Below, one piece after another: positions 5,431 to 45,587 of a stretch of DNA of 64,000 bases (positions are counted from its first letter, which is position 1; the number at the start of each line of letters is the position of its first letter). Origin of the DNA: Actinomycetes bacterium (GTDB lineage Bacteria; Actinomycetota; Actinomycetes; S36-B12). Position numbers and translations under genes: made by a program. The notes under the pieces were generated by a model. The model did no database searches and was not told where the DNA came from. It saw nothing but the letters and a program-made list of their open reading frames with translations. Location: NCBI GenBank assembly GCA_024639145.1, contig JAHEIZ010000008.1, forward strand, positions 11,754 through 75,753, in the 5' to 3' direction.

Positions 5431-6183
5431 ATGAACCTGCTGCCTGATGCGGAGCCGTTCAGCCACGACTCCCCCGAGGCGAAGGTCGGGATTCTCGTCC
5501 TGCACGGGTTCACCGGCTCGCCCAAGTCGATGAAGCCGTGGGGTCGCGAGCTTGCTGCCCAGGGCTGGAGTGTGCGCGTGCCGCGCCTGCCCGGCCATGG
5601 CACCCGCTGGCAGGACATGAACCTGACCACCTGGCAGGACTGGTACGCCGAGGCCGATCGCGCCCTTGCCGAGCTCACCGCGAGCTGCGACCGGGTGTTC
5701 GTGATGGGGCTCTCAATGGGCGGCTCACTCACCCTCCGCCTGGCCGAGCAGCACGGCGATCGCATCAGCGGCATCGTGCTGGTCAATGCCGCAGTACATT
5801 CCGAGCGCCCAGACCGCTACTTGCTGCCGTTCCTCCAGCGATTCATCCCCGCGTTCCCCGGCATCTCCAACGACATTCGCAAGCCAGGTGTCGACGAGGG
5901 CGCGTACGCGAAGATCCCGCTGAAGGCCGCGCATTCACTTACCCAGCTCTGGTCAGCGATCAAGTCCGATATCGGTCGCGTGACCCAGCCGGTGCTTCTC
6001 TTCCGCAGTTCGGTCGATCACGTGGTCGAGGCGAGCAATGCGCAGTGGATTCTCGACAACGTCAGCTCGGGTGATGTCACGTCGATCGAGCTCATCAACT
6101 CGTATCACGTGGCCACCCTCGACTACGACGCCGAATTCATCCATGAGCGCAGCATCGACTTCGTCCGTCGGCTGAGCAGCTGA
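5431..6183 (+). CDS. Alpha/beta hydrolase (carboxylesterase / monoacylglycerol-lipase-like)
   Basis: 250 aa. HGFTGSP oxyanion region and GLSMGG nucleophile elbow. Confidence 0.75.
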   Translation: MNLLPDAEPFSHDSPEAKVGILVLHGFTGSPKSMKPWGRELAAQGWSVRVPRLPGHGTRWQDMNLTTWQDWYAEADRALAELTASCDRVFVMGLSMGGSLTLRLAEQHGDRISGIVLVNAAVHSERPDRYLLPFLQRFIPAFPGISNDIRKPGVDEGAYAKIPLKAAHSLTQLWSAIKSDIGRVTQPVLLFRSSVDHVVEASNAQWILDNVSSGDVTSIELINSYHVATLDYDAEFIHERSIDFVRRLSS

Positions 6184-6184
6184 C

Positions 6185-6583
6185 ATGGCATCGGAGCCGG
6201 GGCCGCCGGAGAGCGAGAAGCCTGATCTCACCGCACAGCAGGAGAAGCGCGCATGGGATGCAATCGTCGCTGACCTCTCGGGCACGCTCGACATCGCAGA
6301 CGTGCTTCCCACCCCTGATCCGGTCATCGATGAACTTCTCGAGGATGAACGCGACTACGAGCCTCCCCATCCCCCGCCGCTCAAGGTGCCGCACGACGTC
6401 GTCGCGCGCTTCGCCTGGGCCGGCGCACTCGGCGGCCCGGTCTTCGTATTCATTGCTTATGCCATCGACCTGCCCCGTTGGCTCGGCGCTGTCGGGGTCA
6501 TGGCAAGCATCGCCGGCTTCGGAACGCTCGTCGCACGACTACCGCACGAGCGCGACGATGATGATGATGGAGCAGTGGTCTAG
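6185..6583 (+). CDS. Hypothetical membrane protein with acidic N-terminal half
   Basis: 132 aa. The start is 1 nt after the upstream stop (TGAcATG). Two predicted TM helices near the C-terminus and an acidic tail DDDDDGAVV. Codon bias is consistent with coding. Confidence 0.5.
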   Translation: MASEPGPPESEKPDLTAQQEKRAWDAIVADLSGTLDIADVLPTPDPVIDELLEDERDYEPPHPPPLKVPHDVVARFAWAGALGGPVFVFIAYAIDLPRWLGAVGVMASIAGFGTLVARLPHERDDDDDGAVV

Positions 6584-7542
6584 ACCGCAGCCAGTCGAGC
6601 GATGTCGGCAGCGCCGATCAGGCCGGCATCGGTGCCGAGCGAGGCAACACGAATCTCGGGGATGGGGCGCAGGTCGCCACCCGGCATCTGCTCCGCCAGC
6701 CGCGCGCGGGCCGGGGCGAGCAGGAGTTCACCGGCCTCGGAGACACCACCGCTGATGACGAACGCGGCCGGGTCGAGCACTGCCGTGAGATCGGCCAGAC
6801 CCGTGCCGATCCACTCGCCGCAGATACGGAAGGCCTCGATGGCCACCGGGTCTCCGGAGAGCGCAGCCTGGGTCACGTGCACACCCTGGATCCCCTCGGG
6901 CGTGCCATTGCCCAAGGAGAGCAGGAGCGATGCCTCCGCACGCCGCTCGGACGCGAGCTCGCGAGCTTGGCGCACCAGCGCCGTTCCGCTACCGTACTGC
7001 TCCCAGCAACCGAGTCGACCGCACCCGCACGGACGACCGCCGGGCACAACCGTGATGTGACCGATCTCCGCCGCACCACCGGTCGCACCGCGCAGCATGG
7101 TGCCGCCGACGATCACGCCGCCGCCGATCCCGGTGCCGACAGTCACCACGGTCAGGTCATCGACATCGGCACCCGCCCCGTAGACGAACTCACCCCAGGC
7201 GGCCGCATTCGCATCGTTCTCGGCAATGACGGTGACGCCCAGATCGGACTCGAGGATGGCGCGTACTTCGACGCGCGACCACCGGAGATTGGGAGCCCAC
7301 AGCACTGTCGAGCGGGTGTTCTCGACCTGACCGGCGATGCCGAGGCCGACGCCGACCACGGGCTCGGCTGACTGCGCCATCAGCTCACGGACAACCTCGG
7401 AGACCACGGCCAGCACCGCCGCAGGATCCTGGGCAGGTGTCGGCCGTCGGGCAGTGGTGAGCACGTGTCCGGAATCATCGACGAGGCCGGCCAGGATCTT
7501 CGTCCCGCCGACATCGACACCGATGGAGTTGCTCACCGGCAC
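6580..7542 (-). CDS. glk: ROK-family glucokinase
   Basis: 320 aa. IGVDVGGTKI ATP-binding start, and the ROK Zn motif GHITVVPGGRPCGCGRLGCWE. Confidence 0.85.
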   Translation of the reverse strand: MPVSNSIGVDVGGTKILAGLVDDSGHVLTTARRPTPAQDPAAVLAVVSEVVRELMAQSAEPVVGVGLGIAGQVENTRSTVLWAPNLRWSRVEVRAILESDLGVTVIAENDANAAAWGEFVYGAGADVDDLTVVTVGTGIGGGVIVGGTMLRGATGGAAEIGHITVVPGGRPCGCGRLGCWEQYGSGTALVRQARELASERRAEASLLLSLGNGTPEGIQGVHVTQAALSGDPVAIEAFRICGEWIGTGLADLTAVLDPAAFVISGGVSEAGELLLAPARARLAEQMPGGDLRPIPEIRVASLGTDAGLIGAADIARLAAV

Positions 7543-7545
7543 AGC

Positions 7546-7866
7546 CTAGAACCCCTGACGCTCCACGGGAATCCAGGAGATCCCGCGCTCGGCACGAGGG
7601 GCCGACGGCTCACTTCTCACACCCTGCACGAGGGCGGTGCCCTTGCACACCAGGCAGTCGGGGTGTTCGCGCGGATCCGCATGATCGGCATGCGGAGCCA
7701 GCACGAGTTCGGAGGCCCAGTCGAAGAGCTGCTGGGCACCTGCGATCAAGGAGCCAATGCTCATGCCGGACTCAGCGGAGCCGGAGGATCTCGACGAGTC
7801 ATCAGGCGCCGAGTCCCCTGCCGAGGAATCACCGGAGAACCACCACGGAGTCGAGCGGTCAGCCAT
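7546..7866 (-). CDS. Small conserved Cys/His-containing protein, translationally coupled to the ArsA-like gene
   Basis: ATG at 7866 overlaps the upstream stop (ATGGCTGA). The product starts MADRSTPWWF... and contains HADHADPREHPDCLVCKG. The 42 upstream codons of the track ORF are treated as an artefact. Confidence 0.5.
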   Translation of the reverse strand: MADRSTPWWFSGDSSAGDSAPDDSSRSSGSAESGMSIGSLIAGAQQLFDWASELVLAPHADHADPREHPDCLVCKGTALVQGVRSEPSAPRAERGISWIPVERQGF

Positions 7867-8905
7867 TGCTCCTCCAGACGCTGGGGTCGGGGGCCAATTC
7901 GATGCGCAGGCCAGTGGGCGACGCCACTGCGCGCGTGATTTCGCATCGTCGGAGTACCGATGGCAGGCTGCGCACTCGCGTGACGGCATCAATCGCGATG
8001 ATCACGCGATCATCCGTGCGACCGAGCCGCAGCGCGGCCGACGCGGGGATTCGCGCGGCTAGTGTCCAGGCGAAGCCGCTCCCGAGTGAGTCGATACTTT
8101 CGATCGAGCGCGTCGCATGCGCGGCCCAGGCCTGACTGCCCTTCTCGACCACGCGAATGCGCTCCACCACCGGTGCGCCGTCACCGTCACGCAGTGGCAG
8201 CACGCGCACCGGCAGGTCACTGAAGTGCTCAACAATGCGCTGAGACATGCGCCTGCGCGTGGCCGACCAGCGCTTGGGCCAGGAGTCCTTGCCGCGAGGT
8301 ACTTGATTGACATAGACGAGATCGACGTGCGCCTCGTACAGGGATGTCACGAGAAGTGCGCGTTCAAGTGATGCGATGCCTCGCTCATCCGGAAGGCACA
8401 CCAGTCGAACAGCCGTGTCCGCACTGCTCAGGCATTCGCGAATCCGCTGCAGCTCGGTTCGCAGCTCGCTGAGCGGCGTATCGAGATCCGCGCGCGCGAT
8501 CGCCATCGCCGGCGTCATCAGCGATGAGGCGAGTAAGTCAAGCGTGTCGGCGGTCATCAGGAGCCGTGCGAGCGCATCGATCGGTCCGACGTCGACAATC
8601 ACGAAGTCAATGTCGTCGAGTGTCGCCGACTCGGCAATCGCGGCCAGGGCCAGGAACTCATCGACGCCCGGCAGCATGGCGAGCTCCTCGGGCAGCACCT
8701 GCTCGGCAGCGCGCAGCACCAGGACATCGGAGGCGAGAGCGCCCAGCCACTGCGATGCCGCTGAGCGAGCGGCAGAAGTCTCCTGCGCATCTGCGAGATC
8801 GATCAACTGCACACGTGCGCCATCGGCGACCGCCTGCATCGCCGTCGCGCGAGCGATCGTGCTGGTGCCAGCACCCCCGGTGCCGCTAAGAAGCAGAAGT
8901 CGCAC
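7859..8905 (-). CDS. ArsA/Get3-like P-loop protein with degenerate Walker A
   Basis: 348 aa. The N-terminus LLLSGTGGAGTSTIA aligns to the ArsA-type GKGGVGKTT loop, but both lysines are Thr. Synteny with SRPBCC and glk matches the Rv2184c neighbourhood. Confidence 0.7.
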   Translation of the reverse strand: MRLLLLSGTGGAGTSTIARATAMQAVADGARVQLIDLADAQETSAARSAASQWLGALASDVLVLRAAEQVLPEELAMLPGVDEFLALAAIAESATLDDIDFVIVDVGPIDALARLLMTADTLDLLASSLMTPAMAIARADLDTPLSELRTELQRIRECLSSADTAVRLVCLPDERGIASLERALLVTSLYEAHVDLVYVNQVPRGKDSWPKRWSATRRRMSQRIVEHFSDLPVRVLPLRDGDGAPVVERIRVVEKGSQAWAAHATRSIESIDSLGSGFAWTLAARIPASAALRLGRTDDRVIIAIDAVTRVRSLPSVLRRCEITRAVASPTGLRIELAPDPSVWRSNG

Positions 8906-34282: not shown

Positions 34283-34648
34283 CTAGCTGAACGAATCACC
34301 GCATGCGCACGAGCCGCCTGCGTTGGGGTTGTCGATCGTGAAGCCCTGCTTCTCGATCGTGTCAACGAAGTCGACAGTTGCGCCATTGAGGTACGGGGCG
34401 CTCATGCGATCGGTGACGACGGAGACCCCGCCGAAGTCCTTCGACACATCACCATCGAGGCTGCGGTCGTCGAAGAAGAGCTGGTAGCGAAGACCTGAGC
34501 AGCCACCCGGCTGCACGGCAACGCGCAGGGCCAGGTCATCGCGACCCTCGGCCTCGAGCAGTGCCTTGACCTTGGAGGCCGCGGTCTCGGTGAGGACGAT
34601 GCCGTCAGCGGTGACGATCTCGACGGGCACAGCGGTTTCAGTCGACAT
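34283..34648 (-). CDS. erpA: Iron-sulfur cluster insertion protein (HesB/IscA/ErpA family)
   Basis: 121 aa. C-terminal GGSCACGDSFS with the conserved Cys triad. Confidence 0.9.
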   Translation of the reverse strand: MSTETAVPVEIVTADGIVLTETAASKVKALLEAEGRDDLALRVAVQPGGCSGLRYQLFFDDRSLDGDVSKDFGGVSVVTDRMSAPYLNGATVDFVDTIEKQGFTIDNPNAGGSCACGDSFS

Positions 34649-34780
34649 GTAGTGGCCTTTCAGGTGAGGTAAGCCTTAGTCGGAGTGTATGCCAGGTCCA
34701 ACGCCTGCGCCCAGCGGCGTATTCCCCGAGTCGGCACGCGGGTCGGAGCGCGGTTTCGCGCGATAGGCAAGAATGAGCCA

Positions 34781-35950
34781 GTGACCTCACAGGTGGACCC
34801 GCAGCCGACCCCCCTGGCACTGCTGCTGCTCGGACGCGGAGCCGATGCGTCCAGCGAGCTCGGCGTCGAGTGCCCCGGAGCCCTGCCACCCGCCTCCGAC
34901 CCCGATCTCGTCGAGCGAGCCGAACGAGCCAAGGCCGCCCTCGGAGATCGTGTCTACATTCTCGGTCACCACTACCAGCGCGACGAAGTCATCGCCTTCG
35001 CCGACGTGACCGGCGACTCCTTCAAGCTGGCCCAGCAGGCCGCCGCGCATCCCGAAGCCGAGTACATCGTCTTCTGCGGTGTGCACTTCATGGCCGAGAG
35101 CGCCGACATCCTCACCGGCGACGCGCAGGCCGTCATCCTTCCCGACCTCGCTGCCGGGTGCTCAATGGCCGACATGGCGGCCATTGAGCAGGTCGAGCAG
35201 TGCTGGCGTGATCTCGAGGCAGCCGGGGTCGCCGATGTCACGATCCCGATCACGTACATGAACTCCACCGCGGCCATCAAGGCCTTCACCGGTCGACATG
35301 GTGGCTCGATCTGCACCTCGAGCAACGCGAAGGTATCGCTGGAGTGGGCATTCGCACGTGGCGAGAAAGTGCTCTTCATGCCCGATCAGCACCTCGGGCG
35401 CAATACCGCGGTGCGCGATCTCGGCATGTCACTCGATGACTGCGTCGTCTATAACCCTCGTCGCCCGAACGGCGGCCTCACCGTCGAGCAACTTCGCGAT
35501 GCGCGCATGATCCTGTGGCTCGGCCATTGCTCCGTGCACGGTCGCTTCACCGCCGAGTGCGTCGACGAAGTGCGCGAGCGCGTGCCCGGGGTCAGCGTCA
35601 TCGTGCATCCCGAGTGCTCGTACGAGGTCGTCGAGAAGGCTGACTTCGTCGGCTCTACTGAGCGCATCATCGCGATGATCGATGCGGCCCCGGCGGGCAG
35701 CAAGTGGGCCGTCGGCACTGAACTCAATCTCGTCAAGCGCCTGGCCGTGCGTCACCCCGACAAGGAGATCGTCTACCTCGATCGCACGGTCTGCTTCTGC
35801 TCGACCATGAATCGCATCGATCTCCCGCACCTCGTCTGGACTCTCGAGAACCTCGTAGCAGGCACTGTCATCAACCGCATCGAGGTTGATGCCGACACCC
35901 AGGAGTGGGCCCGCATCGCCCTCGATCGCATGCTCTCCCTCACCGCCTAG
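34781..35950 (+). CDS. nadA: Quinolinate synthase
   Basis: ILGHHYQRDEV, FCGVHFMAESADIL and HPEC motifs. The start is set at GTG 34781 because the upstream 32 codons of the track ORF are Arg-rich and implausible. Confidence 0.85.
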   Translation: MTSQVDPQPTPLALLLLGRGADASSELGVECPGALPPASDPDLVERAERAKAALGDRVYILGHHYQRDEVIAFADVTGDSFKLAQQAAAHPEAEYIVFCGVHFMAESADILTGDAQAVILPDLAAGCSMADMAAIEQVEQCWRDLEAAGVADVTIPITYMNSTAAIKAFTGRHGGSICTSSNAKVSLEWAFARGEKVLFMPDQHLGRNTAVRDLGMSLDDCVVYNPRRPNGGLTVEQLRDARMILWLGHCSVHGRFTAECVDEVRERVPGVSVIVHPECSYEVVEKADFVGSTERIIAMIDAAPAGSKWAVGTELNLVKRLAVRHPDKEIVYLDRTVCFCSTMNRIDLPHLVWTLENLVAGTVINRIEVDADTQEWARIALDRMLSLTA

Positions 35951-35979: not shown

Positions 35980-36585
35980 ATGTTCGGACGAGGCAAGAGC
36001 GATGAGTCGCCGGCACCTATCCCTGCGACCGAGGAAACTCACGCAGGCAGCAAGGGCCGACCCACCCCTTCGCGCAAGGACGCCCAGCGTGCGCGTAAGC
36101 AGTTCCTCAAGACCCCCAATGACCCCAAGGCCGCGAAGGCTGCCCAGCGCGAAGCCGATCGCACCGCGAAGCTACGCGCGCGCGAGGGCATGGCCGCCGG
36201 CGATGAGAAGTACCTGCCCGCGCGTGACCGCGGCCCGGCCAAGGCCTTCACCCGTGACTTCGTCGACGCACGCTTCACTCTCGCCGAGTACTTCATCTTC
36301 ATTGCGGTGGCCGTGCTGCTGCTCGGCTTCGTCAAGAACCAGGCACTGTCGACCTTCATCTCGACCGGCTTCTTCGCCATCACGGCGCTCATCGCCCTCG
36401 ACTCGATCATCTTGGTGATCCAGCTCAATAAGCGCGCGAAGGAAGCCTTCCCGAACGAAGCCGATCGCAAGGGCATCACGCTCTACGCGCTCCTGCGCAC
36501 GCTGCAGCTTCGCCGCCTTCGCCTGCCTCCGCCCCGCGTGCGTCGCGGCGGCAAGCCAGTACTGCCCAAGGGCTCGAAGAAGTAG
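35980..36585 (+). CDS. DUF3043-family membrane protein
   Basis: 201 aa. Lys/Arg-rich N-terminus (GRPTPSRKDAQRARK) followed by two TM helices. Positioned as Rv2206 is, upstream of cobT. Confidence 0.7.
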   Translation: MFGRGKSDESPAPIPATEETHAGSKGRPTPSRKDAQRARKQFLKTPNDPKAAKAAQREADRTAKLRAREGMAAGDEKYLPARDRGPAKAFTRDFVDARFTLAEYFIFIAVAVLLLGFVKNQALSTFISTGFFAITALIALDSIILVIQLNKRAKEAFPNEADRKGITLYALLRTLQLRRLRLPPPRVRRGGKPVLPKGSKK

Positions 36586-36834: not shown

Positions 36835-37002
36835 GGTTCAGGAACAACTGAATCGACGTATTCGAGATCCAGGGGAAGTCCGGTGTGAATCCGGCGCTGT
36901 CCCGCAACCGTGATCCCTCACTGAGGGCGAGTCGGAGCACCTGGCGAGTACGAGCGGCTCTATCCGTCGAGGTAACGGGACGAGTCAGGTCATTCCTGAA
37001 TT
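36835..37002 (+). promoter_or_regulatory. Cobalamin (adenosylcobalamin-type) riboswitch aptamer
   Basis: Core AGGGGAAGUCCGGUGUGAAUCCGGCGCUGUCCCGCAACCGUGA (36871-36913) and B12 box GAGUCGGAGCACCUGGC (36929-36945). The P1 candidate pairs ttcaggaa (36837-36844) with ttcctgaa (36993-37000). Confidence 0.9.
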
Positions 37003-37003
37003 G

Positions 37004-37040
37004 TCCCTCCGTGCATTCGTGCCGGGGGGATTCTGCTTTT
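37004..37040 (+). terminator. Putative riboswitch expression-platform terminator
   Basis: tccctccg (37004-37011) pairs with ccgggggga (37022-37030), including one G-U pair and an inner gca/tgc stem. It is followed by ttctgctttt. Confidence 0.5.
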
Positions 37041-37088
37041 CAGGATTCCTGCATGTTCACGACCGCTCCATGAGAAACGCAGGAACAC

Positions 37089-38159
37089 ATGTCACGCACC
37101 ACTCGCACCATCGCCGCCAGTGCGGCACTCGCGATCGCCGCATTCGGCCTCGCCTCGCCTGCTCACGCGAACCACGCACCGGGCACCACCGGCCTCTACG
37201 GCACCGCCGATCCCGGCTACGACGGCGTCTACCGTCAGTCGCTCGCGATCATTGGGCTCACGTCCAACGGCGTGAAGCCGTCTCCGGCCGCGATCGGGTG
37301 GCTCATCAGCCAGCAGTGCAAGGACGGCAGCTTCCAGGAGTTCCGCGCCGACACCACGAAGCCATGCGACACGGTCGATGCAGTCAACGGCAAGGGTCCG
37401 GACTCCAATGCCACGTCGCTTGCCGTGCTCGCACTGATGTCCATCGACAACACCAATCTCGCCTCGAATACCGTGATGAATGCCGTCGTGAAGGCAGCGA
37501 GCTCGGCGGGCCTGTGGCTCCGAAAGAACCAGCACTCCGACGGCGGCTGGGCGTACTACGCCGGATCGCCCTCCGATTCAAGTTCGACCGGGCTGGCCCT
37601 GGCAGCGCTCAGCACCCAGGCACCCAATCGCCAGCAGCCGAATATCGTCAAGGGCAGCAAGTTCCTCGCCTCGCTCATCATCGCGTGCGGCTCCACCGAC
37701 GGCGGCGCACTCGTGTACCAGAAGGGCAGCAAGGCAGACGGGCTCTCAAGCGCACAGGGGTTGTACGGGCTCGTCGGCAGTGTTCCGGTCAGAGCCGCAG
37801 GCAAGCTGGGCCCGACACCGAAGTGCGCGGGCAATCCGGCCAACAAGATTGCCAGCCACCTGTCTTCGAAGTTGCTGAGCAACGGCACCCTTGCTTCGGC
37901 ATTCGGCGATGGCCCTGACTACACCGCAACCGCAACGGCTGTCGTGGATCTCTCTGCCGCAGGCGTTGCCAAGGCCGCGGTCGCGAAGGCACTTGCCGCA
38001 CTGAAGTCGAATGCCGCGAGCTACGCGACTCCGGCCGCAGGCGCCAATCCCGCTGCGCTCGGACTCCTACTGAGCGCCGCGAAGGCCACCGGCTCGAATC
38101 CGAAGGCCTTCGGCGGAGTCGATCTGGTCTCGGCACTCGTCAACAGCGAGCACAAGTAA
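37089..38159 (+). CDS. Secreted alpha/alpha-toroid protein (prenyltransferase / squalene-oxidase repeat family)
   Basis: 356 aa with a Sec signal ending SPAHA. Repeated motifs of the type WLxxQQxxDGSF / WLRKNQHSDGGW, with interleaved TSLAVLAL / TGLALAAL helices. Confidence 0.7.
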   Translation: MSRTTRTIAASAALAIAAFGLASPAHANHAPGTTGLYGTADPGYDGVYRQSLAIIGLTSNGVKPSPAAIGWLISQQCKDGSFQEFRADTTKPCDTVDAVNGKGPDSNATSLAVLALMSIDNTNLASNTVMNAVVKAASSAGLWLRKNQHSDGGWAYYAGSPSDSSSTGLALAALSTQAPNRQQPNIVKGSKFLASLIIACGSTDGGALVYQKGSKADGLSSAQGLYGLVGSVPVRAAGKLGPTPKCAGNPANKIASHLSSKLLSNGTLASAFGDGPDYTATATAVVDLSAAGVAKAAVAKALAALKSNAASYATPAAGANPAALGLLLSAAKATGSNPKAFGGVDLVSALVNSEHK

Positions 38160-38821
38160 TGCGCACGGCTCGCGCGGCAGCAGCGCTCATCGGCATCGCG
38201 ATTCTCGCGCTGACGGCGATCGCGCCTGCCGCGCGAGCCGAGTCCGCCTATCGCTATTGGACCTACTGGCAGGGCAATGCCGCGTCGTGGCAATTCGGAA
38301 CCCAAGGTCCCGCCACGAGTAACCCAGCCGACGGCGCCGTCGAAGGCTGGCGCTTCGCCGTCTCCGGGGCAGCCGGCAGCACGCAAAGCCAGCCATCGAT
38401 GAGCCCCGCCACAGCCTTCGCAGACCTCTGCGGCTCGACTCCTCCACTCTCGGGCAAGAAGCGAATCGCACTCGTGGTCGATCCGGGCTACGCATCGGAG
38501 GCACCGGACGGCGAGGACCCCATCGGGGCGGTGAGCACCTGCGTCGTCGCCGATGAGGATGCGAGCGGTTACGACATCCTGCGATCCCAGCTCACCGTGC
38601 GAGTCGAAGGCGGCCTGGTGTGTGGCATCGGCGGCTTCCCGGCACACGAGTGCGCGCCCGTGATCGAGGTCAGCGAGGAGTCTGCGAAGCCAGCCAGCCA
38701 GGCCGTGAACCAGAGACCCAGCAAGGATTCCCTCACTTCCTTCGGCTCCATCTCGCTGACCGTTCTTGTCGTGCTCTTCGGCATCGGACTCTCCATTGCC
38801 CTGTGGTGGAGGCGCAAGTGA
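38159..38821 (+). CDS. Secreted, C-terminally membrane-anchored protein (Trp-rich YWTYW motif; resembles the actinobacterial family often annotated SCO2322-like)
   Basis: 220 aa. Signal peptide ending PAARA, N-terminal YRYWTYWQGNAASWQFG...DGAVEGWRF, and a C-terminal TM helix followed by WWRRK. TAATG junction with the upstream gene. Confidence 0.6.
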   Translation: MRTARAAAALIGIAILALTAIAPAARAESAYRYWTYWQGNAASWQFGTQGPATSNPADGAVEGWRFAVSGAAGSTQSQPSMSPATAFADLCGSTPPLSGKKRIALVVDPGYASEAPDGEDPIGAVSTCVVADEDASGYDILRSQLTVRVEGGLVCGIGGFPAHECAPVIEVSEESAKPASQAVNQRPSKDSLTSFGSISLTVLVVLFGIGLSIALWWRRK

Positions 38822-39957
38822 CCGATCAGCGATTCGCCCTGGGTGCCGCCGCGATTCCGCGGTGGCTTCACCCGGGTGCGTGGTGGGCATGGGCGCTGGG
38901 CCTGGCCGCTGCGGCAAGTCGCACCACGAATCCCCTGCTCCTGATTCTCATCGTGTGCTGTGCGGCCATCGTCGTGTCAGCACGCAAGCCCGATGCGCCG
39001 TGGGCGCGCTCATTCGGCTTCTTCCTGCGCCTCGGCGTCGTGATCATCATCGTGCGCGTGCTCGCGCAGATTATTTTCGGCGCCTCGCTCGGCACGACCG
39101 TCATCGTCAATGCACCCGGTATCGCACTTCCCGACTGGTTCGCAGGCGTCCGCCTCGGCGGTGAGATCACCCTGGAGAGCCTGCTCTTCGCGCTCTTCGA
39201 CGGCCTGCGGCTTGCGGCGATCATCGCCTGCGTGGGCGCGGCGAATTCCCTCGCGTCGCCAAGTCGACTTCTCAAGTCGGTTCCGGCAGCGTTGTACGAA
39301 GTGGGAGTCAGCGTCGTTGTCGCACTCACATTCGCTCCGCAACTCGTGAGTGACGTCTCGCGAGTCAGCACCGCACGTCGACTTCGCGGCCGGACCACTC
39401 ATGGCATCCGCGCGATCGCCGGGTCGACCGTTCCCGTCTTCGAGGGCGCACTCGAGCGCTCCGTGCTGCTGGCGGCCGCCATGGACTCCCGCGGCTACGG
39501 TCGCACGGCCGGCATCAGCTCTTCGGTGCGTCGAGTCGCTTCGGGCTTTCTTCTGCTCGGCCTCGTTGCCGCGTGCATCGGCACGTACGCGATGGTGTCC
39601 GCGGGTTCCCCTGCGCTTCTCGGCCTGCCCTTGCTGGCCGTCGGCATCGCGGTGAGCATCCTCGGCATCACGATGGCCGCACGTCGATCGGTCCGCACCC
39701 GTTACCGCCCTGATCCCTGGTGGCTGGCCGAGTGGCTGGTGGCCGCGGCCGGCCTGTGCACCGCCGCCGTATTTACGTGGGCTACCTGGTCCCATCTGGC
39801 GGGCATCGACACCCCCACCGACCCGGCCCGATGGCCGCTGCTTCCGCTGATCCCGGTTCTTGCACTCGTGCTCGCAGCCTCGCCGGCCATCATCGCGCCG
39901 CGACTTCCGCAGGCACTTCGACCCGTGCACGTGCGCGAGGAAGCGGCGGTCGCATGA
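38818..39957 (+). CDS. ECF transporter transmembrane (T) component, CbiQ/EcfT family
   Basis: The GTG start overlaps the upstream stop (GTGA). Polytopic, with a coupling-helix ARxxRG motif (TARRLRGR). The 66 upstream codons of the track ORF are rejected. Confidence 0.8.
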   Translation: MTDQRFALGAAAIPRWLHPGAWWAWALGLAAAASRTTNPLLLILIVCCAAIVVSARKPDAPWARSFGFFLRLGVVIIIVRVLAQIIFGASLGTTVIVNAPGIALPDWFAGVRLGGEITLESLLFALFDGLRLAAIIACVGAANSLASPSRLLKSVPAALYEVGVSVVVALTFAPQLVSDVSRVSTARRLRGRTTHGIRAIAGSTVPVFEGALERSVLLAAAMDSRGYGRTAGISSSVRRVASGFLLLGLVAACIGTYAMVSAGSPALLGLPLLAVGIAVSILGITMAARRSVRTRYRPDPWWLAEWLVAAAGLCTAAVFTWATWSHLAGIDTPTDPARWPLLPLIPVLALVLAASPAIIAPRLPQALRPVHVREEAAVA

Positions 39958-41576
39958 TCGAGTTCGAGAACGTCTCCATCACCTACGCGGGCGCCGACTC
40001 ACCGGTGCTCGTGAATGCCTCGGTGTCCATTCCCGAGGGCGAACTCGTTCTCGTAGTCGGACGCACGGGCAGCGGCAAAACGACATTCCTTCGGGCGATC
40101 AACGGACTCGTGCCTCACTTCACCGGGGGAACGCTCTCAGGTCGGGTCACCATTGACGGTCGCGATACGGCCACGCACCCGCCGCGCGAGCTTGCCGATC
40201 TGGTCGGCATCGTGCCGCAGGATCCGATGAGCGGTTTCGTCACCGACACCGTCGAGGATGAACTCGCGTACGGAATGGAATGCCTGGGGATCGCACCCGA
40301 GGTCATGCGACGCCGCGTGGAGGAGACCCTTGACCTTCTCGGCCTCGCCGAGCTTCGCCATCGCGCACTTCTCTCACTGTCGGGCGGCCAGCGACAGCGG
40401 GTTGCCATCGGTGCGGTACTCACCTCGCATCCGAAGGTTCTCGTTCTCGACGAACCCACCTCCGCACTAGACCCGGGTGCCGCCGAGGAGGTTCTCGCAG
40501 CACTGCAACGACTCGTGCACGATCTCGGCATCACGGTCGTGCTTGCCGAGCATCGGCTCGAACGAGTGGTGCAGTACGCCGATCGCATGATCGTGATCCC
40601 GGGCGCCGGCGAGCCACTCGTGTACGGCACTCCGGCCGATGTCATGCGACTTGCTCCCATTGCGCCGCCCGTCGTGGAACTCGGACGACTGGCCGGCTGG
40701 AGCCCGCTCCCGCTGTCGGTGAGGGATGCACGACGCGCCGCGGGACCGCTGCGCGATCTGCTGATCGGGCGCACGCCTCCCCTGCGCGTGGTTGATGGCG
40801 GCCAGTCGCGCGAGGAACTCGCAGTCACCGAGAACCTCGTCGTGCGCTACGGCACCTTCACTGCACTGCGCGGCGTCACTACGTCGATTCGCCGCGGCGA
40901 GATCGTGGCACTCATGGGCCGAAATGGTGCAGGCAAGTCGACCCTGCTCTCCTCCCTCGTAGGCCTGCGCAGCACCACGACAGGGGCGGTGTCGACCAGC
41001 GGCCACGACCCGCGCACCCTGAAGCCACGCGAACTCGTGCACTCGGTGGGCCTGGTGCCGCAGGATCCAGGCGATCTCCTCGAGGCCACGAGCGTGGCCG
41101 ATGAATGCCGCGCCGCCGACCACGACGCCGAGGCGGAGCCCGGCACTACCCGAGCGCTACTCGCCCTGCTCGCACCCGACGTGCATGACGGCACTCACCC
41201 GCGCGATCTCTCCGAGGGGCAGCGGCTGCTTCTGGCACTCGCGGTGGTGCTCGCTGCGCGACCACCGCTGCTTCTTCTTGATGAGCCGACGCGCGGGCTC
41301 GACTACCCGACGAAGTCACGGCTCGTCACGGTTCTCAGCGATCTTGCCGACGCCGGCCACGGTGTCGTGCTCGCCACGCATGATGTCGAGTTGGCCGCAG
41401 AGGTTGCCACCCGGGTAATGGTCATCGCTGACGGGGAGATCGTCGCCGACGGACCCACGTCTGCAGTGCTCGTCTCGTCACCGATGTTCGCGCCGCAGGT
41501 GGCCAAGGTGCTCGCCCCGGAGCCGTGGCTCACCGTCACCGACGTGGCGTCTGCCCTCGACGGCGAGGCCGTCTGA
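39954..41576 (+). CDS. Fused duplicated ECF/ABC ATPase (EcfA-EcfA')
   Basis: 540 aa from ATG 39954 (ATGA overlap). Two Walker A sites (GRTGSGKTT, GRNGAGKST), two signature motifs (LSGGQRQR, LSEGQRLL) and two Walker B sites (LVLDEPT, LLLDEPT). Confidence 0.9.
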   Translation: MIEFENVSITYAGADSPVLVNASVSIPEGELVLVVGRTGSGKTTFLRAINGLVPHFTGGTLSGRVTIDGRDTATHPPRELADLVGIVPQDPMSGFVTDTVEDELAYGMECLGIAPEVMRRRVEETLDLLGLAELRHRALLSLSGGQRQRVAIGAVLTSHPKVLVLDEPTSALDPGAAEEVLAALQRLVHDLGITVVLAEHRLERVVQYADRMIVIPGAGEPLVYGTPADVMRLAPIAPPVVELGRLAGWSPLPLSVRDARRAAGPLRDLLIGRTPPLRVVDGGQSREELAVTENLVVRYGTFTALRGVTTSIRRGEIVALMGRNGAGKSTLLSSLVGLRSTTTGAVSTSGHDPRTLKPRELVHSVGLVPQDPGDLLEATSVADECRAADHDAEAEPGTTRALLALLAPDVHDGTHPRDLSEGQRLLLALAVVLAARPPLLLLDEPTRGLDYPTKSRLVTVLSDLADAGHGVVLATHDVELAAEVATRVMVIADGEIVADGPTSAVLVSSPMFAPQVAKVLAPEPWLTVTDVASALDGEAV

Positions 41577-41577
41577 C

Positions 41578-42396
41578 ATGAGCGGGCCACAGGTGCACGC
41601 GATGAGACTCGGCACGAGATCACGCATCGCCATCGCGTTGACCTCGCTCATCGGGATCATCGCCTTCGCGTGGCCTTTGCTCGCCTCCCCGGAGTCCGCA
41701 GTGGTCGCGCATTCGAATGACGCGCCGTGGCTCTTCGCGATCATCGTGCCGCTGCTCATGCTCGTGCTGCTCGCCGAGCTCTCCGACGGCGGCATGGACG
41801 CGAAGTCGATCGCACTTCTCGGCGTGATGGCTGCCGTGATCGCGGCCCTGCGCCCGCTGGGCGGCGGGATCGCCGGACTAGAACCGATCTGGATGGTGTT
41901 GATCCTCGGCGGTCGCGCCCTCGGTCCGGGATTCGGCTTCTCCCTCGGCGCGATCTCCCTGTTCGCGTCCGCACTTCTGACCGGCGGAGTCGGGCCATGG
42001 CTGCCCTTCCAGATGCTCGGTGCGGCATGGGTCGGGCTGGGTGCCGGTCTCCTTCCGCGCGCCACGGGCAAGCGCGAGCTCGCACTTCTCGCCGGTTACG
42101 GGGCTGTCGTCAGCCTCCTGTACGGGATGCTGCTCAACCTCTGGTTCTGGCCCTTCGTCTCCGGCCTGCCCGATCAGATTGCGTTCGCTGCCGGCGCTCC
42201 GCTGGGCGAGAACTTCCTGCACTGGTTCAGGTTCACGATTGTCACCAGCCTCGGTTACGACATCCCGCGAGCGATTCTCACAGTTGTGCTGATCCTCATC
42301 GCGGGAAAGCCCGTGCTCCTCGCCTTGCGCAGGGTCTCGCGCAAGGCGGCCTTCGAACCCGCGATCACCTTCGTCCCCGGGACTACGAGCGCATGA
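41578..42396 (+). CDS. ECF transporter substrate-specific (S) component, unusually long
   Basis: 272 aa, hydrophobic and Gly/Ala-rich, with about 6-7 TM segments. It sits directly after the A-A' gene (TGAcATG). The assignment rests on context and topology only. Confidence 0.6.
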   Translation: MSGPQVHAMRLGTRSRIAIALTSLIGIIAFAWPLLASPESAVVAHSNDAPWLFAIIVPLLMLVLLAELSDGGMDAKSIALLGVMAAVIAALRPLGGGIAGLEPIWMVLILGGRALGPGFGFSLGAISLFASALLTGGVGPWLPFQMLGAAWVGLGAGLLPRATGKRELALLAGYGAVVSLLYGMLLNLWFWPFVSGLPDQIAFAAGAPLGENFLHWFRFTIVTSLGYDIPRAILTVVLILIAGKPVLLALRRVSRKAAFEPAITFVPGTTSA

Positions 42397-43775
42397 GAGT
42401 CCGCCTGCTCGGTACCGGCTCGGCCGATGGCTGGCCGAATCCTTTCTGCGAGTGCCGTTCATGCGAGGAAGAGCGCACAGTCGGCCGGCTACGGATGCCG
42501 ACAGCTGCGCTCGTCGACGACATCCTGCTCATCGACAGCGGACCGACCGCGCCGTACAGCGCATCGCTCGGCGGTATCTCCCTTCGCCGAGTCGAGCATC
42601 TCGTTCTCACTCACGGGCACCCCGATCACCTGGCCCCGTCCATCCTGCTGTGGCGCGAATGGGTCTCCGGCCTCACAGTGCTCCACGTGTGGGGCCCGTC
42701 GATGGCGATCGATCTCTGCCGTGACTGGGTTGGCCCCGATTCTCCGGTCGAATTCCATGTGATTGCAGCCGGCGATTGCGTCACTCTCGCGACTGCCCAC
42801 GACAGTTACGAGCTTCGAGCTCTCGAAGCCAATCATGATCCACGCCGGATTGACTCGATCGCGGGCGAAGCACTGCTCTACGACCTTCAGTCACCCAGGG
42901 GCGAGCGACTTCTCTACGCCACCGACACCGGGCCGTTCACCCCGGCAATGCTCGAATCGATGAGAGGGCGTCAATACGACGTCGTGTTGATTGACGAGAG
43001 CTTCGGCGACAAGACGGACCATGGCACCGGTCACTTCGATCTCGATAGCCTGCCTGTGACACTGCACGCTGCACGCGAGTGCGCTGCTACCTCTGATCAC
43101 ACACGTGTGATCGCCGTGCACTTGAGCCATCACAATCCGCCGACCGACGAGCTGCGCGCGCGACTGCACGGAATGGGAGCCGAGCTCATGGACGATCTCG
43201 CAGTGATCGACACCGCTGCATCGCGCAGCCGTCACCTCATCACCGGCGGAGCGCGCTCGGGCAAGTCCTCGCACGCCGAGCGACTGGCCGACCGGCACCC
43301 GAAGGTCGTCTATGTCGCCACCGGCGGAGAGCGCCCTAACGATCTCGAATGGGCACAGCGCATCGCCGCTCACCGCGAGCGCCGGCCGTCCCACTGGACG
43401 ACCATCGAGACAGCCGACCTCGAGACGACCCTGGCCACCGCACCCGCCGATGCCGTGGTCCTCGTCGACTGCATCGGGCTCTGGCTCACGGCACAGCTCG
43501 ACTCGGCCGACGCCTGGGGTCGCGAGACTGATTCCGACATGCGTGCGCAGGTCGAGTCCGCGATCACTGCCTTGATCGAGGCCGTGCGTGATTGCCCCGC
43601 CTCGGTCATCCTCGTCACGAATGAGGTCGGCATGGATCTCGTGCCCCCGCACGCGGGCGGCCGGCTCTTCCGCGACCTGCTCGGCATCACCAACTCACGA
43701 CTGGCCGACGCCTGCGACCGTGTCACCCTCGTCGTCGCGGGCCGCGCCCTCGACCTGCCCAGGAGCTCACCATGA
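42393..43775 (+). CDS. cobU: Fusion protein: N-terminal PhnP-like metallo-beta-lactamase-fold phosphodiesterase domain + C-terminal adenosylcobinamide kinase / adenosylcobinamide-phosphate guanylyltransferase (CobU/CobP)
   Basis: 460 aa from ATG 42393 (ATGA overlap). The N-domain (to about 43227) has LGTGSADGWPNPFCECRSC and THGHPDH. The C-domain has ITGGARSGKS, IAAHRERRPSHW (guanylyl-His region) and VTNEVGMDLVP. Confidence 0.85.
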   Translation: MRVRLLGTGSADGWPNPFCECRSCEEERTVGRLRMPTAALVDDILLIDSGPTAPYSASLGGISLRRVEHLVLTHGHPDHLAPSILLWREWVSGLTVLHVWGPSMAIDLCRDWVGPDSPVEFHVIAAGDCVTLATAHDSYELRALEANHDPRRIDSIAGEALLYDLQSPRGERLLYATDTGPFTPAMLESMRGRQYDVVLIDESFGDKTDHGTGHFDLDSLPVTLHAARECAATSDHTRVIAVHLSHHNPPTDELRARLHGMGAELMDDLAVIDTAASRSRHLITGGARSGKSSHAERLADRHPKVVYVATGGERPNDLEWAQRIAAHRERRPSHWTTIETADLETTLATAPADAVVLVDCIGLWLTAQLDSADAWGRETDSDMRAQVESAITALIEAVRDCPASVILVTNEVGMDLVPPHAGGRLFRDLLGITNSRLADACDRVTLVVAGRALDLPRSSP

Positions 43776-44848
43776 CCGATCTCGCCTCTCTCATCGACCT
43801 GATCGGTGCCCCGAGCGCCGTTGCCGCCGACGAGGCGCGCGCACGACAGGGAATCCTCACCAAGCCGACCGGCGCACTCGGCCGGCTCGAGGAGCTATCG
43901 ATTTGGGTGTGCTCTGTGCAAGGTGCCTGCCCGCCGCGGGTCTTCGCGCGACCGCGCGTGGTGATCTTCGCCGGAGATCACGGTGTCGCTCGAACGGCGC
44001 AGACCTCCGCTTATCCCCCCGAGGTCACGGCGCAGATGGTCCTGAACTTCGTGCATGGCGGAGCCGCCGTCAACGTGCTGGCACGACAGGCCGGTGCGAG
44101 CGTGCGCGTTGTCGACGTGAGCGTCGATGCCGATCCCGACTACGCGCTCTCCATCGCGCCCGAGGTCGTCGCCGATCGCATCCGTCGCGGCTCGGGCTCG
44201 ATCGATCGGGAGGACGCGATGACACGTGCCGAGACCGAGGCGGCCTTCGCACTCGGTCGTCGCATTGCCGACGAGGAGATCGACTCGGGTGCCGACCTGC
44301 TCATTCCTGGGGACATGGGCATCGGCAACACCACCCCCGCCGCTGCCCTCATCGGTTTGCTCGCGAATGCCGATGCGGCAACGGTCACCGGCAAGGGCAC
44401 CGGCATCGATGACACGACCTGGATGCGCAAGTGCGCAGCCGTGCGCGATGCGATGCGCCGCGGCTCCGAGCACAAGGGCGATCCGCTCGCGCTTCTCACT
44501 GCCATCGGCTCCCCCGACTTCGCTGCGGCCACCGGCTTCCTGCTGCAGTCCGCAGCACGCGGCGTACCCGTGATCCTCGACGGCACGATCAGCTCTGCAT
44601 GCGCACTCGTCGCCGATCGCATCAGCTACCGCGCGAAGGCCTGGTGGCTGGCCGGGCATCGCTCCACCGAGCCCGCGCAGTCCATTGCGCTCGATCGCCT
44701 CGATCTCGTGCCCGTCGTCGACTACGGCATGCGGCTGGGCGAGGGCACGGGCGCGCTGCTCGCCCTGCAGATCGTGCAGTCGGCCACCGCGACACTGCGC
44801 GAGATGGCGACCTTCGGCGAGGCCGGCGTGAGCGATCGCGATGCCTGA
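43772..44848 (+). CDS. cobT: Nicotinate-nucleotide--dimethylbenzimidazole phosphoribosyltransferase
   Basis: 358 aa. Contains LTKPTGALGRLEEL, GDHGV and GDMGIGNTT motifs. Confidence 0.9.
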   Translation: MTDLASLIDLIGAPSAVAADEARARQGILTKPTGALGRLEELSIWVCSVQGACPPRVFARPRVVIFAGDHGVARTAQTSAYPPEVTAQMVLNFVHGGAAVNVLARQAGASVRVVDVSVDADPDYALSIAPEVVADRIRRGSGSIDREDAMTRAETEAAFALGRRIADEEIDSGADLLIPGDMGIGNTTPAAALIGLLANADAATVTGKGTGIDDTTWMRKCAAVRDAMRRGSEHKGDPLALLTAIGSPDFAAATGFLLQSAARGVPVILDGTISSACALVADRISYRAKAWWLAGHRSTEPAQSIALDRLDLVPVVDYGMRLGEGTGALLALQIVQSATATLREMATFGEAGVSDRDA

Positions 44849-45587
44849 TGCCCTGCGCCTGGCGATCGGCACGCTGACCCGACTACCGGTTCCCGCGCCG
44901 CGGCAGGTCGATCGCCGCACCGCGGGCATCGCGATGAGCCAGTCGCCCTTGGTCGCGCTCGTGCTCGCTGTCGTCTGCGGACTCCCGCTGCTCATCACGC
45001 CCGATCGACCGCTGCTCGCACTGGTGCTCAGCATCTGCGCCTTCGCCCTGCTCGCCTGGGCCACGCGCGCACTCCACCTCGACGGGCTCGCCGACACCGC
45101 GGACGCACTCGGCAGCGGCAGGCCGGCGGCGACGGCGCTCGAGATCGCGCGCAAGTCGGATATCGGCCCCTTCGGCGTCATCGTGCTGATGCTCGCCCTC
45201 CTGATCGACATCGCCGCGGTGGCCTCACTACCCGAGGGCCGCGATGCCTATCTCGCCTTCGTGCTCGCGATCGTCATCAGCAGAGTCGCGCTCACCCTCG
45301 CCTGCACGCGAATCTGGCCCGCTGCCCGCACTGATGGCCTCGGCGCCGTGGTGGCCGGGTCGGTACCTGTCGCCATCGCCGCTGCGTGGACGATCCTCGG
45401 TCTCGCGCTCGCCTGGTGGCTCCTCGGCGCAGCAGCCGTTCTCGCGGCAGCGCTCGGGCTCCTGGCAGGAATCCTCGTGCTCGTGATCGCGCGTCGCCGA
45501 CTGGGCGGAGTCACCGGTGACGTCCTGGGCGCAACGATCGAGATCAGCCTGACCGCCGCCTTGCTGGCACTCGCGCTCCTTGCCTAA
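44841..45587 (+). CDS. cobS: Adenosylcobinamide-GDP ribazoletransferase (cobalamin synthase)
   Basis: 248 aa polytopic protein. Contains LHLDGLADTADAL and GGVTGDVLGA motifs. 8-nt overlap with cobT. Confidence 0.9.
   Translation: MPDALRLAIGTLTRLPVPAPRQVDRRTAGIAMSQSPLVALVLAVVCGLPLLITPDRPLLALVLSICAFALLAWATRALHLDGLADTADALGSGRPAATALEIARKSDIGPFGVIVLMLALLIDIAAVASLPEGRDAYLAFVLAIVISRVALTLACTRIWPAARTDGLGAVVAGSVPVAIAAAWTILGLALAWWLLGAAAVLAAALGLLAGILVLVIARRRLGGVTGDVLGATIEISLTAALLALALLA

Follow-up and report, generated by a model that had tools for sequence, protein, structure and literature searches.

A cobalamin-riboswitch operon of Actinomycetota joins an ECF importer to a secreted toroid and a membrane-anchored SCO2322-family protein, putative corrinoid-capture proteins

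Two adjacent genes of an Actinomycetes bacterium (contig JAHEIZ010000008.1), whose products are here called P1 and P2, lie within a 64,000-nucleotide stretch of DNA that was analysed as a whole and is referred to as the window. They stand at the head of a riboswitch-controlled operon that also encodes an energy-coupling factor (ECF) importer and the enzymes that finish B12, and this setting makes it likely that P1 and P2 take part in the surface capture of B12-type cofactors. The reading favoured here, with somewhat better than even confidence, is that they act outside the cytoplasm, without enzymatic activity, as accessories to an ECF importer dedicated to corrinoids, forming a putative surface relay that captures corrinoids for the S component of that importer. 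The original prediction, made from the DNA letters, had proposed a surface B12-capture module feeding the S component in the form of a split transcobalamin; the capture module is still argued for by the genomic context, whereas the split-transcobalamin form holds for the toroid half at most. The work on the window proteins was entirely computational and drew on Pfam, NCBIfam, sequence profiles, AlphaFold2 (AF2) models, Foldseek and hhalign.

The segment originally singled out corresponds exactly to two open reading frames (ORFs), P1 (37089-38159, 356 aa) and P2 (38159-38821, 220 aa), which overlap by a single nucleotide, the last base of the P1 stop codon being the first base of the P2 ATG. 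Gene calls on independent public contigs encoding identical P1 and P2 proteins have the same boundaries. The riboswitch and the operon that follows it comprise these features:

36847..36989, plus strand: adenosylcobalamin (AdoCbl; cobalamin) riboswitch aptamer (Rfam RF01482; 62 bits, gathering score 50; E=5e-9)
37003..37041, plus strand: terminator-like hairpin and U-rich tract, the likely expression platform (fold of 36996-37045)
37089..38159, plus strand: P1, a predicted Sec-secreted, unanchored, non-catalytic alpha6/alpha6 toroid, SCO2321-like (NCBIfam, Pfam, AF2, Foldseek)
38159..38821, plus strand: P2, an SCO2322-family protein with a Trp-rich ectodomain, a linker and a C-terminal transmembrane (TM) anchor (NCBIfam, Pfam PF28005, AF2)
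38818..39957, plus strand: ECF T (transmembrane) component (Pfam CbiQ, 34 bits)
39954..41576, plus strand: fused ECF A-A' ATPase (two ABC_tran domains; NCBIfam ECF_ATPase_1/2, ~292 bits)
41578..42396, plus strand: ECF S component for substrate capture, family unclassified (Pfam ECF_trnsprt; 32.7 bits, cutoff 30.7)
42393..43775, plus strand: metallo-beta-lactamase (MBL)-fold domain fused to CobU, cobinamide kinase / guanylyltransferase (Pfam Lactamase_B_2 and CobU; NCBIfam PRK05800, 181 bits, cutoff 161)
43772..44848, plus strand: CobT, nicotinate mononucleotide:5,6-dimethylbenzimidazole (DMB) phosphoribosyltransferase (Pfam DBI_PRT, 415 bits; NCBIfam, 444 bits)
44841..45587, plus strand: CobS, adenosylcobinamide-GDP ribazoletransferase (Pfam CobS, 146 bits; TIGR00317, 112 bits, cutoff 110)

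The aptamer ends 100 nt before the start of P1 on the same strand, and a covariance model built in this analysis from the cobalamin riboswitch matches of sampled relatives (R1) recovers it at 36853-36975 with 141 bits. Between aptamer and P1, the segment 36996-37045 folds at -22.4 kcal/mol (z=-3.4 against shuffles) into a hairpin, CCCUCCG..CGGGGGG, followed by AUUCUGCUUUUC. A simple terminator scan did not list the hairpin at 37003-37041; its strength, together with the U-tract, suggests transcription attenuation. From P1 to CobS the start and stop codons overlap, by 1-4 nt at nearly every junction, and the genes form a single riboswitch-controlled operon in which an importer is coupled to the whole B12-salvage branch for nucleotide-loop assembly. 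The importer that had been proposed downstream of the pair is indeed of ECF type, with a T component matching CbiQ, a fused double ABC ATPase and an S component matching ECF_trnsprt.

The link between the pair and B12 is conserved. A scan of the Genome Taxonomy Database matched 357 species genomes, of which the 80 best-matching loci were kept for synteny and riboswitch counts and compared with the window proteins by tblastn. The order P1-P2-T-AA'-S is found in nearly all of these 80 loci, usually followed by MBL-CobU and CobT. Of ten sampled relatives, eight have an Rfam cobalamin-clan riboswitch 5' of the pair, and R1 matched once and only once, on the coding strand immediately 5' of the pair, in the window and in every locus with upstream sequence (65/65). 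The other 15 of the 80 all start within the pair or a little ahead of it and so lack the upstream region. Homologous pairs lacking a B12 riboswitch, which the original prediction had named as an outcome that would speak against it, were thus looked for, and all 65 proved to be riboswitch-linked; the tie to B12 is strengthened further by the ECF genes and by cobU, cobT and cobS in the operon. In five loci (L041, L046, L053, L058 and L067) the riboswitch, P1 and P2 stand beside cobU/cobT with no adjacent ECF genes, the pair lying at about 5900-7950 of 14-kb loci and P2 carrying a Pro/Thr/Ser-rich stalk of ~100 aa ahead of its TM anchor. Since the riboswitch there governs the pair without ECF genes, the B12 link belongs to the pair itself. 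Large ORFs 3' of P2 in L041 have no Pfam match, are rich in Arg and Pro and are probably spurious.

Both proteins were found to be extracytoplasmic by their signals, as had been proposed. The N-terminus of P1, MSRTTRTIAASAALAIAAFGLASPAHA/NH, reads by eye as a Sec-type signal; P2 has a signal peptide (..APAARA/ES) and, at its C-terminus, a TM segment followed by WWRRK. The QW-like repeats that had been described for P1 are present as WLISQQCKDGSF and WLRKNQHSDGGW, one position out of register with the pattern first given, and the helix motifs NATSLAVLAL and STGLALAAL both occur in the sequence. This toroid signature is more than chance, since Pfam, the PDB profile search, AF2 and Foldseek all agree. 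P1 matches Pfam SQHop_cyclase_N with 27 bits (cutoff 26.2) and, more weakly, Prenyltrans (18.7 bits against a cutoff of 26.5), SQHop_cyclase_C and TED; a family profile of 103 sequences finds squalene-hopene cyclase (SHC) in the PDB at E=2e-26. The AF2 model (pLDDT 92.7, pTM 0.90) has 12 helices forming one alpha6/alpha6 toroid of ~320 residues. Its top Foldseek matches, at TM-scores of ~0.5, are drimenyl-diphosphate synthase, SHC, single-domain cyclase-like proteins, complement TED/C3d and toroid hydrolases, the class II terpene cyclases scoring E=3e-7 and TM ~0.53. Against the NCBIfam equivalog model SCO2321_fam (NF053823), P1 scores 220 bits over model positions 5-352 of 405; the cutoff of 300 is not reached because the C-terminal anchor region of the model is absent from P1. 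By sequence, then, P1 appears as a clear SCO2321 homolog and not as an equivalog.

The absence of an Asp-rich catalytic motif from P1, remarked on at the outset, is borne out by the HMM alignment, where PDVDDT of SHC aligns with PDSNAT (105-110). The terpene-cyclase DxDD is D-S-N-A in P1, and at the position of the SHC general acid, D376, the family has an almost unvarying Asn, N107 in P1. No invariant His is found among the 103 family sequences, and therefore no prenyltransferase Zn site, and no prenyltransferase alpha-subunit gene lies near P1. The invariant residues include cysteines and also D45, D163 and D277. The C-terminus of P1 has no membrane or wall anchor; LPxTG anchors are present in 26 of 103 relatives and absent from the other 77. 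Judged on these features, P1 is predicted to be a secreted, non-catalytic alpha6/alpha6 toroid. One related protein of 730 aa (P0380) appears to be a fusion of P1 and P2. Its linker is Arg-rich and looks out of frame, and the P2 signal peptide is kept, so the gene call most likely reflects a frameshift or read-through and no natural fusion.

P2 belongs to a catalogued family. It matches NCBIfam SCO2322_fam (NF040672) with 143 bits over residues 27-168 (cutoff 85), the precomputed annotation of this exact protein gives Pfam PF28005 (SCO2322), and the family comprises 1,463 clusters at 50% identity (E<=1e-3). All sequence strings first quoted for P2 were found in the protein, as was the C-terminal anchor, a TM helix followed by a basic tail that recurs in 98/100 family members; some members also have a 100-residue Pro/Thr/Ser stalk. 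Anchor and stalks fit a domain displayed outside the membrane, as far as such signals can be read from sequence. Residues R32, W34, Y36, W37, W44, W64, F87, K101 and four Cys are invariant. The AF2 model has a pLDDT of 83.9 overall and >90 in the core (about residues 31-160), with secondary structure in the order beta-beta-beta-alpha-beta-beta-alpha-beta-beta. Mean-field direct coupling analysis (DCA) of 268 P2 sequences recovered antiparallel beta1/beta3 and beta4/beta5 pairs and helix packing, with no coherent ladder joining the two halves. The family profile found no match in the PDB, and among 350,542 PDB chains the best Foldseek hit had E=1.1. In two relatives P2 has a beta-lactamase-like companion: a secreted beta-lactamase-like ORF lies directly 3' of P2 in L058 (5920-6771), and protein P0410 has a Beta-lactamase2 domain fused N-terminally to its SCO2322 domain. 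Such a domain may be a third, lineage-specific surface component.

That P2 might be a relative of DUF4430 and the transcobalamin (TC) beta domain, as the original prediction held, found no support in sequence, profile, hhalign or Foldseek searches. None of 100 P2 family members matched DUF4430 (PF14478) at E<=10, the P2 family profile found no chain of TC, intrinsic factor or haptocorrin in the PDB, and hhalign of P2 against a TC-beta alignment, whose seed is 100% identical to PDB 5NO0 and 2BB5, returned a probability of 0.3%. The TC-beta profile, used to gather bacterial DUF4430 proteins, retrieved mammalian transcobalamins only. A DUF4430 domain in native order is rejected for P2 at the sensitivity reached by profile, Foldseek, Pfam and hhalign. 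The DUF4430-like motifs noted in P2 run in reverse order relative to DUF4430, which suggested a circular permutation. By eye, YWTYWQ..SWQFG..PADGAVEGWRF of P2 resembles FWQLLRD..PLLQG..PKDGETIELRL of TC and, in swapped order, KRIALVVD..STCVVA..SGYDILRS..GLVCGIGG resembles ISVTLQV..SISVLAG-STVEDVLKKA..GPYLTSVMG. Permuted constructs (residues 97-170, then 28-74) found no match in the PDB and none to DUF4430 or any other Pfam family, and hhalign of permuted P2 against TC-beta gave a probability of 0.5% over 18 columns only (QG..P.DG). A circular permutant of TC-beta or SLBB is thus unsupported by PDB, Pfam and hhalign, and a kinship of P2 to the transcobalamin beta domain, resting on the eye, is likewise unsupported.

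Several results weigh against a corrinoid-binding relay. P2 has no detectable similarity to known B12-binding folds by PDB profile, Foldseek, Pfam or hhalign. P1 has no Pfam match to Cobalamin_bind (PF01122), transcobalamin is absent from the PDB matches of its profile at E<=1, and hhalign against the human TC alpha domain (sequence verified against the PDB) gave a probability of 0.1%; nor is transcobalamin among the best 50 Foldseek matches. The S component found nothing significant among solved S components, including CbrT, by phmmer or with an 18-sequence profile; as it is not CbrT-like by sequence, its substrate can be read from context only. Finally, in three loci of Nocardioidaceae and Kribbella (L078, L079, which is Kribbella pittospori, and L080) the riboswitch is followed by P2 and the ECF genes without P1, so that some lineages manage without the toroid; the partner that stays with the transporter throughout is P2. 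For the transcobalamin idea these comparisons leave at most the toroid half. The likening of P1 to transcobalamin alpha holds for the fold class (12 helices, toroids in Foldseek) and fails by Cobalamin_bind, PDB profile and hhalign; the two share a fold class, with no detectable specific kinship, and on sequence grounds P1 appears much closer to SHC-type repeats than to transcobalamin.

An arrangement of toroid, small surface partner and ECF transporter is known in kind from Firmicutes. Transcobalamin-like SLBB proteins, either secreted or anchored, were described there, with alpha/alpha toroids fused to them or encoded beside them (Burroughs et al., 2007; PMC1796856). They sit in CbiO/CbiQ operons, and their predicted role is to scavenge B12 or its precursors (PMC1796856). 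In Lactobacillus sakei, Lsa1839/Lsa1840, a split pair of an alpha-like and a beta-like protein in an ECF operon, was assigned to heme (bioRxiv 10.1101/864751). Like the Firmicutes system, the actinobacterial one begins an ECF operon with a secreted or anchored toroid and a small extracellular partner. It differs in that its partner is an SCO2322 domain with no DUF4430/SLBB signal and no solved structural neighbour, in its lineage (Actinomycetota) and in the joining of the operon to cobU/cobT/cobS; the SLBB partner is replaced by an unrelated or undetectably related domain without structural precedent. Published binding data were found for neither system. P1, with its 12 helices, is of the same fold class as the ~310-residue, extracellular, disulfide-containing alpha6/alpha6 barrel of vertebrate transcobalamin, intrinsic factor and haptocorrin; those carriers, unlike P1 and P2, are single chains with a beta-grasp C-terminal domain. 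It shares QW-like repeats with class II terpene cyclases (squalene-hopene cyclase, drimenyl diphosphate synthase), which are its best sequence and structure matches. Those enzymes have two toroid domains and work at the cytoplasmic face of the membrane, whereas P1 is a single Sec-secreted toroid with DxDD replaced, encoded in a B12 operon. Unlike the protein prenyltransferase beta subunit, P1 lacks the Zn site (Asp/Cys/His) and has no alpha-subunit partner gene nearby.

Among importers, ECF-CbrT of Lactobacillus delbrueckii is an ECF-type system assigned to cobalamin or cobinamide (PMC5997447). The operon studied here differs in an S component without sequence similarity, in a dedicated operon-encoded energising module and in two extra surface proteins. 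The Bacteroides lipoproteins BtuG/BtuH (PMC8941943) and the staphylococcal Isd heme relay offer a functional analogy, capture of a tetrapyrrole-type cofactor at the surface followed by its delivery to a membrane transporter; there is no sequence or fold similarity to either, and envelope architecture and transporter class differ. The available portion of Kang et al. (PMC5301498) describes acI actinobacteria without B12 synthesis and with a riboswitch-preceded ECF module; the leading genes of that module go unmentioned in that portion. No literature was found on the function of SCO2321 or SCO2322, the sole string match being, by its title, a paper on transdermal peptide delivery, and nothing relevant was found that combines prenyltransferase, riboswitch and ECF.

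The transporter itself is an ECF system with a dedicated module (group I), in which the genes for T, A/A' and S lie together and keep their order across loci. The T component (379 aa) matches CbiQ (cutoff 25 bits) over residues 21-229 only, and its C-terminus has ~150 extra residues with several hydrophobic segments, which could possibly be a docking site for the P2 anchor. Downstream, the MBL domain N-terminal to CobU bears a weak resemblance to PhnP (43 bits, well under the cutoff), and most related loci keep the fusion. Beside CobU, CobT and CobS the operon has no CobC-type phosphatase, a step that the MBL domain might supply. Just 5' of the riboswitch, a DUF3043 membrane-protein gene (35980-36585) is kept in most related loci; it sits outside the riboswitch-controlled unit, and simple synteny may be the explanation. 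Further upstream the neighbours (34283-35950) have a housekeeping-like look: a 121-aa ORF on the minus strand (34283-34648) has at its end the Cys-x-Cys-G motif usual in proteins that insert iron-sulfur clusters, and a 421-aa ORF (34685-35950) is quinolinate synthase-like by eye.

On the favoured reading, a low intracellular AdoCbl level would allow transcription to proceed past the riboswitch through the whole operon. The P1 toroid would then be found outside the cell, free in the clade of the window and anchored to the wall by sortase in others, and the Trp-rich domain of P2 would be tethered by a flexible linker and its C-terminal membrane anchor. We infer that the two proteins, perhaps as a complex, bind a corrinoid: outside the membrane they would take up cobalamin, cobinamide or another cobamide, which they would hand over to the S component, whereupon the T component and AA' module would power import. 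CobU, CobT and CobS would attach or exchange the lower ligand, finishing or remodelling the cofactor. Localisation speaks for such a relay through the signal peptides on both proteins, the TM anchors of P2, the LPxTG motifs of P1, the stalks of P2 and the invariant Cys sets in both. A bolder version, which we hold to be possible but rather doubtful, makes the SCO2322 domain an unrecognised corrinoid-binding fold, either new or a permuted beta-grasp too diverged to detect, and the anchor-less P1 a released corrinophore that docks on tethered P2. P1 would in that case capture B12-type cofactors in the water, in a hemophore-like relay of abundant freshwater and soil actinobacteria; the clade with anchor-less P1 is large and includes the window.

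Other substrates have to be weighed against corrinoids. The importer could serve for a lower-ligand base or riboside (DMB or alpha-ribazole) and not for the corrin, P1 and P2 binding a small aromatic molecule. The operon holds cobT, for DMB activation, and cobS, the S component is unclassified, and Trp-rich surfaces would suit aromatic ligands. CblT, a B12-regulated ECF S component predicted for DMB, is a further point in that direction. We nevertheless consider this improbable: cobU, for cobinamide activation, is also within the operon, a base that crosses membranes would hardly seem to need two large surface proteins, and the sole precedent for a toroid with a partner concerns B12 binding, itself predicted (PMC1796856). 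Relatives in the lineage are moreover reported (PMC5301498) to lack corrin synthesis, so that import of the macrocycle is needed. A module for cobalt or nickel, or for another tetrapyrrole such as heme, is very unlikely. The T component does match the Pfam 'CbiQ cobalt transport' family, and B12 riboswitches often control cobalt importers. CbiQ is, however, a generic ECF T family, the S component has no Pfam match to CbiM/CbiN or NikM, the operon is joined to nucleotide-loop assembly genes and not to cobaltochelatase or heme genes, and the riboswitch association is universal in the sample. In favour of the tetrapyrrole version, heme was the substrate that the L. sakei authors assigned to their operon with a toroid and a beta-like protein (bioRxiv 10.1101/864751).

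It is also conceivable, if unlikely, that P1, P2 or both bind no corrinoid and act instead as an extracellular enzyme or as a scaffold, for corrinoid release from carriers, local wall remodelling or stabilisation of the ECF complex. Two toroid hydrolases, MmpH and a glycosidase, are among the structural neighbours of P1, and D45, D163 and D277 are invariant in its family. These Asp residues, however, begin inner helices in a 'D-x-x-(S/T)-T' motif that is a structural repeat in each hairpin, and the sole motif of known catalytic role has been lost from P1. The beta-lactamase-like ORF after P2 in L058, the fusion of the same type of domain to SCO2322 and the unexplained C-terminal membrane extension of the T component also speak for a role of this kind; P2 itself has no enzyme-like match by Foldseek or Pfam.

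To our knowledge, the extracellular capture of B12 by Gram-positive bacteria is largely unknown. The characterised B12 systems are BtuB/BtuF, BtuG/H, ECF-CbrT, BtuM and BacA. The P1-P2 pair is widespread in Actinomycetota, including B12-auxotrophic freshwater Nanopelagicales and Streptomyces-type producers, and its case is contextually well supported, ecologically relevant and directly testable, although the concept is not new. If corrinoid binding is true, the SCO2321 and SCO2322 families, now catalogued without function, would both gain one, and a domain with no solved relative would join the list of B12-binding domains. The P1 toroid would also lend weight to the view that the B12 carriers of animals arose from surface scavengers of bacteria, and the pair would offer a concrete handle on vitamin traffic in lakes and soils.

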